In this document: positions 25,273-40,210 of the stretch, piece after piece | Numbering within the stretch: position 1 is the stretch's first letter | Layout of the letters: every line of letters begins with the position of its first letter | DNA from: Enterobacter phage Arya | Direction: 5' to 3' (one strand) | DNA: 41,918 bases | Sequence record: KX231828.1 | Notes under the pieces: generated by a model | Database searches by the model: none | What the model was told of the DNA's origin: nothing | The model's input: the letters and a program-made list of their open reading frames with translations, nothing else | Program-made: the position numbers and the translations under genes

Positions 25273-25349
25273 TGGCGACCCCACCAGGAATCGAACCTGG
25301 AACCTACAGCTTAGAAGGCTGTCGCTCTATCCGGTTGAGCTATGGGGCC
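25273..25349 (-). tRNA. tRNA-Arg (anticodon UCU, decodes AGA/AGG), CCA encoded
   Basis: Manual fold of the reverse complement gives acceptor GGCCCCA/TGGGGTC, D-arm GCTC-AACCGGATA-GAGC, anticodon arm ACAGC-CTTCTAA-GCTGT (U33, anticodon TCT, A37), variable AGGTT, T-arm CCAGG-TTCGATT-CCTGG, discriminator G, and CCA. Confidence 0.85.
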
Positions 25350-31116: not shown

Positions 31117-31285
31117 ATCGCTGTTTCCTTAACGTTCACGGTGAATGGACGGTTACCGGTACGGTTGATCCGAGTCAAGCCAGAGTCTATTTTCTTCACC
31201 GCTGTGGAAAACCATAGTTGGTTTCATGTACAATGACGTAAATCAATTAACCGTTACAGACAATGAATAACCGTGAAGGGCAATT
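31117..31285. promoter_or_regulatory. divergent early promoter/operator region between the repressor and the helicase operon
   Basis: A 169-bp gap with repeated half-site-like motifs: TTCACGG (31135) and its complement CCGTGAA (31271), plus ACGGTT/AACCGT four times (31150, 31162, 31252, 31271). A related ACGTGA/GCGTGAA pair lies downstream of cI at 30522-30538. Confidence 0.4.
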
Positions 31286-32701
31286 ATGGGCGTTGTGCTG
31301 CGTGACTACCAACAGGACATTATCGACAGGGGCCGCCAGGCTATGCGGCGGCATAAGCGAATACTTTTCCAGGCACCTACCGGCGCAGGCAAAACGGCCC
31401 TGGCGTCATTCATGGCCGCGCAAACTTCTGACAAAGGGCAGCAGGTCTGGTTCATCTGCCACCGGGCTGAACTGGTCCTGCAAACCAGCCTGACATTCAG
31501 AAAGTTTGGCATCGACCACGGATTTATTGCCGCAGGTTATCCCATGAACCTGCGCGCCGGTGTTCAGGTGTGCAGCATCGACACGCTGAAAAACCGACTG
31601 CACCAGCTACCGCCACCAAAGCTGGCCATCATGGACGAAGCGCACCACTGTGGCGCGGCTGGTTGGGCCAGGGTGAACCAGTGGCTGTTTGAAAACGGCG
31701 CGTTCGTCATCGGGCTGTCAGCCACGCCAAAGCGCCTGGACGGCACCGGCCTGGACGCACACTTTGACGATATCGTTTTAGGGCCATCCGTTCGCTGGCT
31801 GATGGATAACGGCCACCTGTCTGACTATCGCATGTTCTGCCCGGACATCCCTGACATGAAGGGTGTACGCAAACAGATGGGCGATTTTTCCAAAGGCGAA
31901 ACCGCCGAAAAGATGGACAAGCCGAAGTTAACCGGGAACATCATCAACCACTGGCGCAAGTACGCCAACGGGATGAAAACGGTTGGGTTCGCCGTGAACA
32001 TTGCCCACAGCCAGCACCTGACGCGCGCGTTTCAGGAGGCAGGGATAAGGGCCGCGCACCTGGACGGCGGCACCGATAAGGCGGAACGCAAGCGCATCAT
32101 TCAGGAATATGCCAATGACAACCTGGATGTCATTTTCAACGTTTCGCTGTTCGGTGAAGGTTTCGACCTGTCAGCCATCGCACAGACTGACGTGACGATT
32201 GACTGCCTGATTGACGCGCAGCCAACACAATCATTGTCACTGGTGCTGCAAAAGGATGGCCGCGTGTTGCGACCGTCCAAAGGCAAAACCGCTGTCATCC
32301 TGGACCATGCTGGCAACGCACTGCGTCACGGTTTCCCTGATGACGAACGGGAATGGAGCCTGGCCGGTGACGAAAGCGGCAGCAAATCATCCACCAGCGA
32401 TGGACCACCACCGCCAGTGATCTGCAAAGGCTGCTTTAACGCCATCCGCAGACCACTGCCGCCGAAATGCCCGCACTGCCAAAAGGAACTAATTGCCGAA
32501 GCCAAAGAAATTGAAGTGGCCGAAGGTGAGCTGAAAGAGATGGACGAACGCGCCAAAGAAAGCCTGCGCGCGAAGATGAAGCGAGAAGAAGCGGCCTGTA
32601 AGGACATCGGCGCACTGACTGCCCTGGCGATGAAACGCGGCCTGCCGAACCCGTCAGGTTGGGCCATTGCGAAGATGGGCGGCAGAAGGTTTAACCGATG
32701 A
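31286..32701 (+). CDS. superfamily-2 DEAH-box DNA helicase with C-terminal zinc ribbon
   Basis: DYQQDIIDRG, Walker A APTGAGKT, motif II MDEAHH, and further helicase motifs are present, with C-terminal CKGCFNAIRRPLPPKCPHC. Confidence 0.8.
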   Translation: MGVVLRDYQQDIIDRGRQAMRRHKRILFQAPTGAGKTALASFMAAQTSDKGQQVWFICHRAELVLQTSLTFRKFGIDHGFIAAGYPMNLRAGVQVCSIDTLKNRLHQLPPPKLAIMDEAHHCGAAGWARVNQWLFENGAFVIGLSATPKRLDGTGLDAHFDDIVLGPSVRWLMDNGHLSDYRMFCPDIPDMKGVRKQMGDFSKGETAEKMDKPKLTGNIINHWRKYANGMKTVGFAVNIAHSQHLTRAFQEAGIRAAHLDGGTDKAERKRIIQEYANDNLDVIFNVSLFGEGFDLSAIAQTDVTIDCLIDAQPTQSLSLVLQKDGRVLRPSKGKTAVILDHAGNALRHGFPDDEREWSLAGDESGSKSSTSDGPPPPVICKGCFNAIRRPLPPKCPHCQKELIAEAKEIEVAEGELKEMDERAKESLRAKMKREEAACKDIGALTALAMKRGLPNPSGWAIAKMGGRRFNR

Positions 32702-32809
32702 ATACCTGTGAATTGATAGTTATAAACAACTGGAAGGTTTAAGTATTTAAACGTAATATCTAATCACCGGCACAGATGGTGCCCAATAACAAAACGAGGT
32801 AATGCCCAA

Positions 32810-33100
32810 ATGACTACTGTAAATATTCGCAATGGTTTTGGTTTTCAAGAACTGCCAGCCGCTTTTGAAGGCACGATTCATGACGCAGATGGCTGCAAGT
32901 TTTTCATTGCAACAACCAATGATTTCAAGCTGACGGTTGACAGCGAACAAGAACACGGCGTGATCATCGCATTTGGACCTGACAGCATGAAAAATGACGG
33001 TGAACATTGCAGTGACGGCCTGGTGTTTTCGTCTAACGATGACAAGAAAATCATTGCTGCGCAGTTGCGAGAACTGGCTGATTGGTTCGAGCAGCAGTAA
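32810..33100 (+). CDS. hypothetical protein (moron 2, conserved hairpin+leader upstream)
   Basis: A 96-aa ORF preceded by the hairpin GGCAC-agatg-GTGCC and the leader CCAATAACAAAACGAGGTAATGCCCAAATG. Confidence 0.55.
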   Translation: MTTVNIRNGFGFQELPAAFEGTIHDADGCKFFIATTNDFKLTVDSEQEHGVIIAFGPDSMKNDGEHCSDGLVFSSNDDKKIIAAQLRELADWFEQQ

Positions 33101-34482: not shown

Positions 34483-34506
34483 GTAAAATTATCTCAGATT
34501 AGCTTT

Positions 34507-34545
34507 AAATTCTTAAATGGTCCTGCTATAGTAGGACCATTGTTT
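34507..34545 (+). terminator. rho-independent terminator / near-perfect 13-bp inverted repeat
   Basis: AATGGTCCTGCTA-TAGTAGGACCATT followed by GTTTATTTC. Confidence 0.6.
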
Positions 34546-34572: not shown

Positions 34573-34767
34573 ATGAATAAGAATACGGAAAAACTAATTG
34601 CTCTGATGAACGCGCACCAGCTTACCTGCCGTGATGTTGGTAATATGTTGGGCCGCACTGTTTCAACCGTTCGCGTATGGCGCTGCGCCAACCCCGAAAG
34701 CCCGACCATCCCGAATGGACAGCTTGAATTGCTGGAACTGAAACTGGCGCAGCAGGCAGCACAGTGA
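34573..34767 (+). CDS. small HTH DNA-binding protein (putative replication-module regulator)
   Basis: MNKNTEKLIALMNAHQLTCRDVGNMLGRTVSTVRVWRCAN has an HTH pattern. It is the first gene after the terminator and upstream of the primase. Confidence 0.5.
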   Translation: MNKNTEKLIALMNAHQLTCRDVGNMLGRTVSTVRVWRCANPESPTIPNGQLELLELKLAQQAAQ

Positions 34768-35004: not shown

Positions 35005-37305
35005 ATGAGTGCACAGCCAAATTACAAGGATTTGACCGAACAGGAAATTGCAGAGGCGCTTTCGTATATCGACGCCAGTTGCGACCGGGAAACCTGGGTA
35101 CGCATGGCAATGGCGGTCAAATCAGAATTGGGTGACGGTGGTTTCACCGTCTGGAATGACTGGTCAAAACAGTCTGGCAAATACGATACCAAATCAGCAC
35201 GCTACACCTGGCGCAGCGTTAAGCGTCACGGCGGCATTGCCATTGGCACGCTGATTGGTGAGGCGAAACTGTTTGGCTTTTCCCTGAACGATGCGGAACG
35301 CACCCCGCTGTCAGGTGAAGAAATCGCCGCACGTAAGCAGCGCCGCGAAGCAGAGGAGCGCGCCGAAGCCGAACGCCTGGCCGCATACCGTGCGAAGGCA
35401 GCCGAACAGGCACGCACCATTTGGGAATCTGCCGCTGACATCGAGGGCAGCGAACACCCGTACCTGTCACGCAAAGGCGTGAACGCGTTCGGGCTGCGTG
35501 TTGGCCGGTTCTGGACCGATAAGCGCAGCATTGATGGCGCACTGCTGATTCCTGTTCGTAACATTGACGGGCAGATCACCAGCGTTCAGGCCATCTTCCC
35601 GAACGAAAACCCGCAGTTGGGCCGTGACCGTGACTACCTGCCAGGCGGCCAGAAGCGTGGATGCTTCCACGTCATCGGCAACAAGCCAACCGGGCAGAAA
35701 CCCGTCATTGTGGTCTGTGAGGGCTACGCCACTGGTGCATCCATTCACCAGGCTACCGGGTTCTGTGTGGCCGTGGCATTCGATGACGGCAACCTGCCTA
35801 CTGTGGCCAGACTTCTGCGCCAGCAGTTCGGCAGCGCCACAATTGTTGTGGCTGCGGATAATGACCAGTGGACCGAAGGCAACCCCGGCGTTCACTTCGC
35901 GCGCCAGGCAGCTACAGCAGCCTGTGCAATCCTGGTGGTGCCAAAATTCGACGTAATGAGCGACCAGCCAACCGACTTCAATGACCTGCAAAAACTGCAA
36001 GGCATCGAAGAGGTAAGGCACCAAATCCAGGCGGTCATCCCTGAACCGGCAAATGATAATTTCCTGGATCTGGATTCCAACGTATCGCCGTTCGAATTCC
36101 CGCACCTGTCAGACAAGATGCAGCCGCTGAACACCTGGGAAAACCTGGATTGGATGTTGAGCCAGTACGGCATCACATCGCGTTACAACGAGATCAGCAA
36201 AGACGTGGTTGTTTCCATACCTGGGAAGGACTACGGCAACGACGCATCAGCCAACTGTTCCCTGGCGGAAATATCCAGCCTGTGCGCGCGTAACCGTATG
36301 CCAAAAGGTGACGTGGGCGATTACATCAAACTGATTGGCGTGGCCAACCGCTTCAACCCTGCGGCTGATTTCATCACGTCAAAGCCGTGGGATGGCACCA
36401 GCCGCATTTATGACCTGTGTGACACGCTGGAAACCGCGCCTGGGTTTGACCGCAGCCTGGTGTTGATGCTGGTTCGCCGCTGGCTGATTTCCGCCGTAGC
36501 CGCAGCCATGCAGCCAACCGGGTTCTGGTCCAAAGGCGTCCTGGTGCTACAGGGTGAACAATCCCTGGGTAAAACCGCATGGTTCCGCGCGCTGGTTCCT
36601 GACCTACACAGAAATCTGGTTAAAATCGGCGCAACTATCGATCCAAGTAATAAGGACAGCATCAGCAGTGCAATCGGTCACTGGATGGTTGAATTAGGCG
36701 AACTGGATGCGACGTTCCGCAAAGCCGACATTGCGCGCCTTAAGTCATTCATCAGCCAGGACCGTGATGACCTGCGCAGACCATATGACCGCCTGGAATC
36801 GAAGTACCAGCGCCGCACCGTGTTTTTTGCGTCAGTGAACCCGAAACACTTTCTGGCCGATGACACCGGGAACGTGCGCTGGTGGACCATCCCTGTAACA
36901 AGCGTGAACTATGAACACGACATTGACACACAACAATTGTGGGCCGAAGTGGCGCAACTGTTCCGTGACGGTGAACGCTGGTGGTTAGAACCACACGAAG
37001 AACAGGCGCTGGAACAGGTCAACCGTGACCACGAAGCGATTGACCCGGTAGAGGAAATGATCCTGTCACGTTATGAATGGGGTTGTGACCGCATTGGCGC
37101 TTACAGTGAGCAGACGGCCAGCCAGGTGCTGCAAACCATCGGGTTTGATAAGCCGAACAAATCACAGGCCACGAATTGCAGCAACGTGCTGCGTAAGCTG
37201 ACCGGCGAAGAACCGCGCAAGACCAAAAACGGGCGTTTCTTCAACCTGCCGCCGAAGGTGTTACAGCCTGATTACAGGCGGCCACAGGATGACGAGCCAT
37301 TTTAA
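35005..37305 (+). CDS. bifunctional primase-helicase, P4 alpha / D5-like (PriCT_2 N-terminus, TOPRIM, SF3 helicase)
   Basis: The N-terminus WNDWSKQSGKYDTKSARYTWRSV has a PriCT_2-like pattern. TOPRIM is PVIVVCEGYATGASIHQATG...VVAADNDQ. The SF3 helicase Walker A is VLVLQGEQSLGKTAWF. The C-terminal about 100 aa is a putative DNA-binding domain. Confidence 0.85.
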   Translation: MSAQPNYKDLTEQEIAEALSYIDASCDRETWVRMAMAVKSELGDGGFTVWNDWSKQSGKYDTKSARYTWRSVKRHGGIAIGTLIGEAKLFGFSLNDAERTPLSGEEIAARKQRREAEERAEAERLAAYRAKAAEQARTIWESAADIEGSEHPYLSRKGVNAFGLRVGRFWTDKRSIDGALLIPVRNIDGQITSVQAIFPNENPQLGRDRDYLPGGQKRGCFHVIGNKPTGQKPVIVVCEGYATGASIHQATGFCVAVAFDDGNLPTVARLLRQQFGSATIVVAADNDQWTEGNPGVHFARQAATAACAILVVPKFDVMSDQPTDFNDLQKLQGIEEVRHQIQAVIPEPANDNFLDLDSNVSPFEFPHLSDKMQPLNTWENLDWMLSQYGITSRYNEISKDVVVSIPGKDYGNDASANCSLAEISSLCARNRMPKGDVGDYIKLIGVANRFNPAADFITSKPWDGTSRIYDLCDTLETAPGFDRSLVLMLVRRWLISAVAAAMQPTGFWSKGVLVLQGEQSLGKTAWFRALVPDLHRNLVKIGATIDPSNKDSISSAIGHWMVELGELDATFRKADIARLKSFISQDRDDLRRPYDRLESKYQRRTVFFASVNPKHFLADDTGNVRWWTIPVTSVNYEHDIDTQQLWAEVAQLFRDGERWWLEPHEEQALEQVNRDHEAIDPVEEMILSRYEWGCDRIGAYSEQTASQVLQTIGFDKPNKSQATNCSNVLRKLTGEEPRKTKNGRFFNLPPKVLQPDYRRPQDDEPF

Positions 37306-37308
37306 TCA

Positions 37309-37336
37309 ATAACCCGCTTCGGCGGGTTTTTCGTTT
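37309..37336 (+). terminator. rho-independent terminator
   Basis: AACCCGCTTCGGCGGGTTTTTCGTTTATT, immediately after the primase stop. Confidence 0.75.
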
Positions 37337-37577
37337 ATTGATAGGTATAAACGATTAGCCCATTTAAGAAGTTAAACGTATAGTTATTACATAGGGCGGC
37401 GGCAGGATGCAGCCGGAGAGGAGCAACGCAGGGGCTTGATCGTAGTGTCAGGATTCCCAACCGTGAGGCCGAACATTGGACACTCGCCGAAAGGCAGAAC
37501 GCTTACCAATGACATCGAACCGAGGCTACCGACGAAGCACGACGCCCACAATTAACAGCATCATGAGGGGCAGCGCG

Positions 37578-37793
37578 ATGGCGGCAGAAACCAGCAAAGC
37601 AATCAGCGTAAAGACAAACAGCAGAGGCATCAAATATTGCCTGGTCAGCAACAGTCAGGGATTTGAAGTCTGGAAGCTGTGCGAAAACTATTGCCGTCAG
37701 ACCAAAGGCGGAATTCGTAAAACGTGGCGCTATGTCGAAAAAGGCATGACGCAGGAAGCGGCTGAAAAACTGTTTAAACGCCGCACGAAATAA
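37578..37793 (+). CDS. small basic hypothetical protein (71 aa)
   Basis: MAAETSKAISVKTNSRGIKYCLVSNSQGFEVWKLCENYCRQTKGGIRKTWRYVEKGMTQEAAEKLFKRRTK. GAGGGG lies 7 nt upstream of the ATG at 37578. The track ORF starts at 37476. Confidence 0.45.
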   Translation: MAAETSKAISVKTNSRGIKYCLVSNSQGFEVWKLCENYCRQTKGGIRKTWRYVEKGMTQEAAEKLFKRRTK

Positions 37794-37842
37794 CCAACCC
37801 TGCCCCACTTCGCGTGGGGCCAATAAAAACGAGGTAACACCC

Positions 37843-39760: not shown

Positions 39761-40210
39761 ATGGACCTTCCGCGCAGTGTTCAGGATATAGCTGACGTTA
39801 TTGGGCGTGAACGTGCGCTTTATCTTATCGGCCAGTTGCCAACCTACACCGTCAAAGATACCCGCTGGCCATCTGCTACCCGAACCAAAATCATTCTGTA
39901 TGTGCCAAAGACCTTAAAGCCCACTGATGACCTGGTGCGCATCATTGGCTGGAATGACGCATCAAAACTGGTTCACTATTTCGGCGGTGAATTGCTCTAC
40001 CCTGGAACGTGCGCGGAACTGCACCGGCGCTTCATGGTCCAAACCATCAGACGCCTGGCAGCCGAAGGAATGAGCCATAAAGCCATCGCCTTCAATCTGG
40101 ATGTGTCAGAACGCACCGTGAAGCGTCATTGCTCGGACAACACCCCCAAAGACATTAGCGCGGCTAACGATAACCATCGGCAGCGACTTATCACAGCTAT
40201 GGGGCATTAA
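39761..40210 (+). CDS. putative late-gene transcriptional activator, Mor/C-family-like (C-terminal HTH)
   Basis: YFGGELLYPGTCAELHRRFMVQTIRRLAAEGMSHKAIAFNLDVSERTVKRHCS resembles Mu Mor (GGQVYIPRGQALDSLIRDLRIW...ELTTRYGVTFNTVYKAIRR). It sits directly upstream of the lysis cassette. A TTGACT-17-GATTAT promoter-like sequence is at 39731-39759. Confidence 0.4.
   Translation: MDLPRSVQDIADVIGRERALYLIGQLPTYTVKDTRWPSATRTKIILYVPKTLKPTDDLVRIIGWNDASKLVHYFGGELLYPGTCAELHRRFMVQTIRRLAAEGMSHKAIAFNLDVSERTVKRHCSDNTPKDISAANDNHRQRLITAMGH

Follow-up and report, generated by a model that had tools for sequence, protein, structure and literature searches.

The window analysed here, the whole 41,918-nt stretch of Enterobacter phage Arya (KX231828.1), carries a DNA helicase gene (31286–32701, PHROG 16), a + strand gene for a 64-aa helix-turn-helix (HTH) protein (34573–34767, PHROG 14341 "transcriptional repressor", E 7e-19) and a primase gene (35005–37305, PHROG 2249). 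The HTH–primase unit closes with an intrinsic terminator on the + strand (37311–37333, hairpin 37311–37328; AACCCGCTTCGGCGGGTT plus a T run) that is kept in all relatives. A pattern search of the whole window for TTGATAGNTATAAAC-N10-TTTAAG-N3-TTAAACGTA returned two exact matches, both on the + strand, at 32713–32755 (element 1) and 37338–37380 (element 2); no further three-block match occurred in the window at up to three mismatches, and 100 dinucleotide shuffles gave none. Element 1 starts 11 nt past the helicase stop codon and is followed by a 5′ leader (32767–32809, + strand) consisting of a GC hairpin (CCGGCACAGATGGTGCC), a CA-rich tract and a Shine-Dalgarno sequence, and by a 96-aa ORF (32810–33100, + strand; PHROG 28115, unknown function). 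Element 2 stands behind the primase terminator and precedes an untranslated stretch of ~190 nt, after which the first ORF encodes a 71-aa basic protein (37578–37793, + strand; weak match to PHROG 24586).

An earlier note on this DNA had proposed a three-block element present twice in this very context, and both the double occurrence and the context are borne out; its coordinates covered the element, with ends drawn slightly loosely (32760 for the first copy, 37336–37390 for the second). The 16-bp near-palindrome that it had reported in the first copy is equally real (GTTTAA-GTAT-TTAAAC, both 6-bp arms perfect, versus 5/6 matching positions in the arms of the second copy). The three blocks themselves also exist, but they are better read as an upstream 13–15-mer plus one putative 14-bp operator abutting a −10 hexamer; what had been called blocks 2 and 3 are the two dyad arms plus the first two −10 bases. 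The dyad core recurs once more, as TTTAAattcTTAAA upstream of the small HTH gene (34504–34517); this third occurrence is absent from the earlier note.

Over this region the window shares 80–83% identity with myophages that infect Escherichia, Salmonella and Klebsiella and belong to the genus Jilinvirus, subfamily Iiscvirinae. A check of the three blocks in the Jilinvirus relatives ECOO78, ep3, ECO1230-10, PT1, Alux-21, KA2-1 and HeidiAbel_Bas97 found the element retained at both positions in every relative examined, and Serratia phage MQ-4 carries an element after its helicase gene. Altogether, 23 element instances in 13 genomes share a single architecture, which reads in order as the block TTRATAGGTATAAMC, ~10 nt (often GATTRG), a 14-bp dyad, 0–4 nt and a TAnnn[T/A] hexamer (TATAGT, TAATAT, TAGTAT, TATTAT or TATAGA), with a conserved 5′ end 6–8 nt after the hexamer. 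Some Jilinvirus/Iiscvirinae phages have an intact cI and integrase that others have lost (PMC11990801); the elements are kept where cI and integrase are gone, and the system is therefore not tied to lysogeny. One variant layout was seen at the post-primase element of the metagenomic relative L042 (7756–7835), where an insertion of ~24 nt places the operator beyond the −10 (TACTAT-GCA-TTTAAGAACTTAAA), directly before a Shine-Dalgarno sequence and ATG, with 26 nt between the upstream block and the −10.

The upstream block (block 1) of element 1 is TTGATAGTTATAAAC (32713–32727, + strand, about −53 to −39), with the core 13-mer GATAGTTATAAAC at 32715–32727; it is exactly repeated in element 2 as TTGATAGGTATAAAC (37338–37352, + strand), where GATTAG comes next. 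The hexamers that we take as −10 are TAATAT in element 1 (32754–32759, + strand), which aligns with TAnnnT across the 23 instances and places the predicted start near A32766, and TATAGT in element 2 (37379–37384, + strand), with a predicted start near A37391; all 23 of 23 instances have a sigma-70-like TAnnn[T/A] at this position. A sigma-70 −35 close to TTGACA at 16–18 nt was not found in either element (best 3/6), element 1 offering only a weak CTGGAA/TGGAAG (32730–32736) and element 2 only a weak TTAGCC (37355–37360, spacer 18 nt); the spacing from weak TTRNNN to −10 runs from 16 to 19 nt across instances, and a consensus promoter scanner called neither element. The −10 assignment rests on homology with canonical promoters that drive the same RNA, and not on consensus alone. 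In unrelated phages, the RNA that follows element 2 stands behind canonical sigma-70 promoters whose −10 ends 6–8 nt before the RNA 5′ end, as in TTGACA-17-TATAGT-TCAACACA-TAGGG, TTGCAA-17-TATAGT-TAGTTCA-TAGGG and TTGACT-17-TAATAT (HK578); the window counterpart is TATAGT-TATTACA-TAGGG, and at element 1 the relatives read TATAGT-TATTTCA-CCGGCAC. A further layout, in which the left arm of the dyad would serve as −35 and ATTACA or TAATCA, 17 nt on, as −10, was considered and rejected, the conserved hexamer being TAnnnT, which matches the canonical geometry.

Block 1 has the core GATAGnnAwAAwC at about −51 to −39 and is common to the Jilinvirus relatives and to distant GC-rich lineages (examples from the latter are GAAAATCAAATA and GATAGTGAAAATC). 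It ends 24–27 nt before the −10 in every Jilinvirus-lineage instance, and the same distance was found in the GC-rich relatives L020 and L021 (−10 read by eye), L022 being ambiguous. Because this distance is constant, even in L042, block 1 and the −10 appear to form a fixed promoter skeleton to which the dyad is added as a separable module. Block 1 may be UP-element-like or the site of some conserved factor: like an UP element (the site of the alpha C-terminal domain, −60 to −40), it is A/T-rich and is held at a fixed distance from the −10. GATAG forms no part of the UP consensus, and the match of block 1 to that consensus is loose. Other candidates were tried for block 1 and set aside. IHF, Fis and CRP sites gave partial matches only (by eye, against their consensus sequences); a cI operator is contradicted by the absence of the block from the cI–helicase region and its retention in relatives without cI; and a Mor/C-like site is contradicted by its occurrence at no other place in the window and its lack of dyad symmetry. 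A Mor-like gene is present (39761–40210). The layout of Mu Mor/C-dependent promoters was not found here either, the dyad being centred near −21.5 and that of Mor/C activators near −43.5.

The 14-bp dyad TTTAA-N4-TTAAA occurs exactly three times in the window; 300 first-order Markov simulations gave 0.03 occurrences on average and never more than 1. The three putative operators, to which no strand is assigned, are O1 (TTTAAgtatTTAAA, 32738–32751) and O3 (TTTAAgaagTTAAA, 37363–37376), each in its promoter spacer at about −28 to −15, and O2, the copy at 34504–34517, which spans −35 to −22 of the HTH promoter and provides its −35 (TTTAAA) with the left half. The distance from dyad to −10 is 0–10 nt overall, 0–7 nt at sites of the element 1 and 2 type and 4–7 nt in GC-rich relatives. 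Within a genome, the dyad type upstream of the HTH gene is the type found at the other one or two sites, and RNA-carrying phages that have no HTH homologue have no dyad in the RNA promoter. The TTTAA dyad is absent from the cI–helicase intergenic region (31117–31285). That divergent region holds candidate cI operators of its own, TTCACgGTGAA (31135–31145) and TTCACcgctGTGGA (about 31194–31208), the latter adjoining a predicted rightward promoter, TGGAAA-18-TACAAT (31205–31234); they resemble the TTCAC/GTGAA dyads used for the small HTH protein in GC-rich relatives.

The promoter of the HTH gene was called by the scanner (TTTAAA-17-TGcTATAGT, with an upstream TG) and, unlike elements 1 and 2, has a recognizable −35; the inverted repeat at 34504–34517 lies inside the core promoter of the proposed regulator itself. 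The Jilinvirus relatives, MQ-4 and most of the GC-rich relatives share this layout, and no such dyad was found directly upstream of the HTH gene in L018/L019 and L022. The −10 of this promoter, TATAGT (34527–34532), is enclosed by a palindrome on the + strand, AATGGTCCTGC-TATA-GTAGGACCATT (34516–34541), whose arms vary between phages and stay complementary (GGTCCT/AGGACC, GCGCCC/GGGCGC, GCGCCG/CGGCGC, GGCCGA/TCGGCC); a T-rich run follows it in the enterobacterial phages, not in the GC-rich relatives. The palindrome may be a promoter fused with the terminator or 3′-end hairpin that closes the preceding unit. Gene callers start the HTH protein at TTG 34540 (75 aa), and the HeidiAbel, ep3 and Alux-21 annotations are lengthened likewise; since this TTG coincides with the predicted transcription start, translation more likely begins at ATG 34573 (64 aa).

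An AlphaFold2 model of the HTH protein (pLDDT 88.9) consists of four helices, with residues 30–37 (VSTVRVW) as the predicted recognition helix. Foldseek placed it near Xre/Cro-like folds, namely the phage 186 regulator, Aca1, Aca2, Aca10, C proteins, P2 C, 434 Cro and P22 Cro (entries 4yba, 2ef8, 2cro, 2xcj and 1rzs), with TM scores of 0.57–0.74, weak E-values of 0.1–1 and at most 18% sequence identity; these neighbours are small repressors that bind their operators as dimers. Pfam gave only a weak HTH_23 match. Within the phage collection, the protein has homologues in Iiscvirinae-like phages, in MQ-4 and in three further phages of Pseudomonas type, and nowhere else. Among 50,697 deposited phage genome records, none encodes a protein more than 60% identical to the window version, which has serine at position 31; this S-type protein together with TTTAA operators was otherwise seen only in the metagenome-assembled contigs L042–L044.

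The half-sites of the dyad change symmetrically between lineages and in step with the recognition helix, a pattern that is based on only four or five classes of specificity, not all of which come from distant phages. Proteins with R[TSK][ED]QTV go with TTTAC/GTAAA (Jilinvirus isolates, MQ-4 and L018), those with RTVSTV, RTISTV or RRPSTV go with TTTAA/TTAAA (the window, L042, L043 and L044; the L043 protein is only 53% identical), those with RTPQTV, RAPQTV or RKPHTV go with TTCAC/GTGAA (L015, L020 and L021; in L017, with RTAQTV, the right arm is ATGAA), and RSNQTV goes with TTCGT/ACGAA (L022). At position 2 of helix 3, the predicted recognition helix (S31 or Q31 in the AlphaFold2 model), Q accompanies TTTAC and S accompanies TTTAA, while TTCAC or TTCGT accompany other helices. 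This covariation, together with the fold neighbours and the shared distribution of HTH gene and dyad, makes the small HTH protein the likely binder. Three regulators had been put forward in the earlier note; the comparison points to the small HTH protein, and the cI-like and Mor-like proteins are not indicated.

Taken together, we consider it probable that the two copies are sigma-70-type promoters, that the dyads are operators of the HTH protein, likely repressing, and that element 2 launches a structured RNA. The proposal of internal promoters that serve variable accessory genes and are overlapped by a dimeric regulator site thus gains support. The repeat, its conservation, the promoter geometry by homology, the protein–operator covariation and the covariation within the RNA are direct results, whereas we infer the binding itself, the sign of regulation, the start sites, the role of block 1 and what the RNA does. 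Briefly, a dimer of the 64-aa protein would bind TTTAA-N4-TTAAA in the two promoter spacers, and the third operator, because it overlaps the −35 of the HTH gene's own promoter, would add autoregulation and co-regulation of three transcription units. The first unit would run from element 1 through accessory genes, a resolvase gene and small genes to the palindrome at 34516–34541; the second from the HTH promoter through the HTH gene, a DUF7696 gene and the primase gene to the terminator at 37311–37333; and the third from element 2 through the RNA, which would comprise the first transcribed nucleotides, and into further accessory genes. An operator placed inside the RNA polymerase footprint in a varying register would most likely act by steric repression, and negative autoregulation could yield a burst of early expression that is then shut off, or could buffer dosage while genome copies rise.

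The varying register of the dyad favours a repressor operator over helix-face-dependent activation, and we hold repression to be roughly twice as likely as activation. Nevertheless, the HTH protein could act as an activator that replaces the −35 contact or reshapes the spacer in the manner of MerR or T4 MotA, in which case elements 1 and 2 might be middle promoters turned on by an early protein that still represses itself through its own −35 site. The main argument for this unlikely alternative is that neither element has a good −35 or was called by the scanner, and promoters without a −35 often need an activator; furthermore, the HTH gene has a strong independent promoter, the terminator ahead of element 2 leaves the downstream genes in need of a new promoter, and some of the 16–19-nt spacers are long. 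Activation from one helix face, however, should not tolerate a dyad whose distance from the −10 ranges from 0 to 7 nt and which in L042 lies downstream of the −10, the Xre/Cro-like four-helix fold is neither MerR nor MotA, and block 1 at its fixed distance provides another route for recruiting polymerase. A non-transcriptional element, either a recombination boundary for cassette exchange or a site where the HTH protein acts in replication or partition, would suit the variable genes downstream of both elements and their position next to the helicase and primase genes. We regard it as very improbable, given that in 23/23 instances the spacing of a −10 hexamer from block 1 and from conserved 5′ ends is fixed, and that the HTH gene has a textbook promoter overlapped by the same dyad; a boundary role would in any case be compatible with promoter function and would not replace it. 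The anatomy proposed in the earlier note, with TTGATA as −35 and a −10 of (G/C)(G/A)TTTA 17 nt downstream, which would put the dyad in the transcribed leader, can hardly be upheld: TTGATA agrees with TTGACA at 5/6 positions, but it lies 35 nt from the real −10 (TAATAT / TATAGT) and so cannot be a −35, GC-rich relatives keep the GATAG and lose the TT, the supposed −10 (GGTTTA / CATTTA) is the left edge of the dyad, does not end in the T that matters at position 6 and shows no conservation as a −10, and the RNA 5′ boundary and −10 are set by homology to canonical promoters.

Under the preferred reading of HTH-bound operators within sigma-70-type promoters, we read the dyads as repressor operators with a logic similar to that of Aca proteins, Cro and restriction-modification controller (C) proteins. 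Aca proteins repress through inverted repeats inside core promoters (PMC9410906), and the system proposed here would share with them a small HTH protein, an inverted repeat of ~14 bp in the core promoter, variable accessory genes and self-control (PMC9410906), with Aca1, Aca2 and Aca10 among the structural neighbours. The differences are that the window protein is at most 18% identical to these neighbours and that its gene has its own promoter and two distant putative targets, whereas Aca sits downstream of its cargo in one operon. C proteins, Cro and P2 C are dimeric Xre/Cro-type HTH proteins with palindromic operators over −35/−10 and autoregulation, as is proposed for the window protein; here, in contrast, the operators lie outside the cI-proximal switch region and are kept in relatives without cI. 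As in MerR-type promoters, the operator dyad (here centred near −21.5) separates a weak −35 from the −10, and spacers of up to 19 nt occur, but the HTH protein does not belong to the MerR family, and both spacer length (16–19 nt, against a fixed 19–20 nt in MerR-type promoters) and dyad register vary. The promoter–operator system is thus of a familiar type; the unexpected part is the RNA that element 2 drives.

The stretch after element 2 is untranslated, as had been claimed, but it is a conserved structured RNA and not a spacer. This 5′-leader RNA of 159 nt (37391–37549, + strand) is closed by helix P1 (37394–37401 with 37540–37547) around a multi-helix domain. Intergenic DNA that is 80–98% identical to it, and carries no annotation, occurs in 170 phage records, which fall into four unrelated groups (Jilinvirus, Sortsnevirus, Dhillonvirus and Drexlerviridae Tempevirinae). 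Wherever its surroundings were inspected, the RNA sequence immediately follows a promoter and is on the coding strand. No match was found in 5,426 complete E. coli genomes or the plasmid collection, and a set of 185,579 species genomes gave a single match, on a phage-sized contig of 42.8 kb. Rfam 15 returned nothing over 37391–37549 at E values up to 10 and nothing for four other variants at E values up to 1, and searches of the literature by sequence string and keywords did not find a name for the RNA. The sole Rfam/ARAGORN match in the window is a tRNA-Arg (anticodon TCT) at 25273–25349 on the − strand. The sequence comparison suggests a mobile, promoter-proximal RNA module that the Jilinviruses have in common with unrelated virulent coliphages.

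A covariance model was built from a hand-derived structure of six helices; RNAalifold on a plain MAFFT alignment misaligned a variable arm and missed P1, and the hand-built structure and pair counts were used instead. The window copy scores 205.7 bits, and one copy per locus was found in 44 of 59 sources (the window plus 58 loci). In an alignment fitted to the model, 93.5% of pair-cells are paired, as opposed to 32–42% with partners shifted, 21 of the 37 pairs show compensatory changes on both sides, and the covariation score is 0.446, against at most 0.069 in shifted controls. P1, P4, P5 and P6 are strongly supported, P5 occurring in eight distinct complementary versions, while P3 is weak and P2 is invariant. 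G-U pairs identify the + strand as the functional strand. The folding energy is unremarkable (z = 0.15), so thermodynamics alone lends the RNA no support; this, and the fitting of the alignment to the model, call for some caution.

Each phage has different, unrelated genes downstream of the RNA, and a search for a riboswitch-style expression platform after it found none that is conserved, a 4-bp GCCC/GGGC option being present in two phages only; these two observations argue that the RNA is not a gene-specific riboswitch in the usual sense. It resembles the HK022 put RNAs and riboswitch leaders in starting at +1 of an early unit, in being highly structured and in having a conserved single-stranded core. 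It differs from put, which is two stem-loops, in its length of ~160 nt and its six helices, and from riboswitch leaders in having no conserved terminator or ribosome-binding-site-sequestering platform after it and in its unrelated downstream genes. Candidate roles are those of a cis-acting polymerase modifier, a host-factor binder and a 5′-end stabiliser. We tentatively suggest, as a reading that falls somewhat short of being the likelier one, that it represents a new phage RNA class and takes an active part, for example in processive antitermination in cis or in binding or decoying a host or defence factor. Were it active, its spread among four unrelated groups of virulent coliphages and its absence from bacterial chromosomes would be explained, and the Jilinviruses would have put it under a switchable HTH operator whose specificity is re-coded by a single Q/S residue.

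Several Jilinvirus relatives, namely ECOO78, ep3, ECO1230-10 and L044, do not carry the RNA; element 2 directly drives a DNA methyltransferase gene in ECOO78 and ep3 and other genes in ECO1230-10 and L044. In KA2-1 and ECO1230-10 (L008 9780–9830 and L009 10425–10470), the post-primase element drives another leader, ACATGAAGCGGCGCGGGGCCGCAG, a small GC hairpin in place of the 159-nt RNA. The hairpin P2 (37402–37410) contains CAGGAUG (CAAGGAUUG in Tempevirinae) with GGA in its loop, and a second CAGGAU follows 46 nt downstream (37450–37455). The P2-loop sequence resembles CsrA binding sites; CsrA binding was considered and rejected, as GGA is not enriched (5 occurrences by hand count, against a rough estimate of about 4 expected). 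Genes annotated as "hypothetical protein" lie inside the RNA in L003 (10018–10137, HeidiAbel Bas97_0052) and L005 (9369–9575, PT1 QIG65642.1, reverse strand); they are probably spurious, and other records have no annotation there.

The lifestyle of Jilinvirus/Iiscvirinae has been called enigmatic (PMC11990801). The map proposed here would be the first regulatory map for this group, with three units under one small autoregulated HTH protein that is independent of the cI module. The natural Q/S difference in the helix and the C:G/A:T operator pairs would form a compact specificity code that is directly testable, and the RNA is the more valuable by-product, strongly covarying and either unannotated or mis-annotated as small ORFs. 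Since the RNA-carrying records include the BASEL isolate HeidiAbel (Bas97), knock-outs and phenotyping against a defence panel are feasible. The cargo genes belong to PHROGs of unknown function, none identified as anti-CRISPR or anti-defence. The leader cassette after element 1, which begins at the predicted transcription start, is the same in relatives. A cassette of this kind, consisting of a GC hairpin, CCAAyAAnAAAAcGAGGwAA and ATG, is repeated before several variable genes (32767–32809 and 37795–37842 in the window; 4720–4763 in L003) and is shared with relatives.
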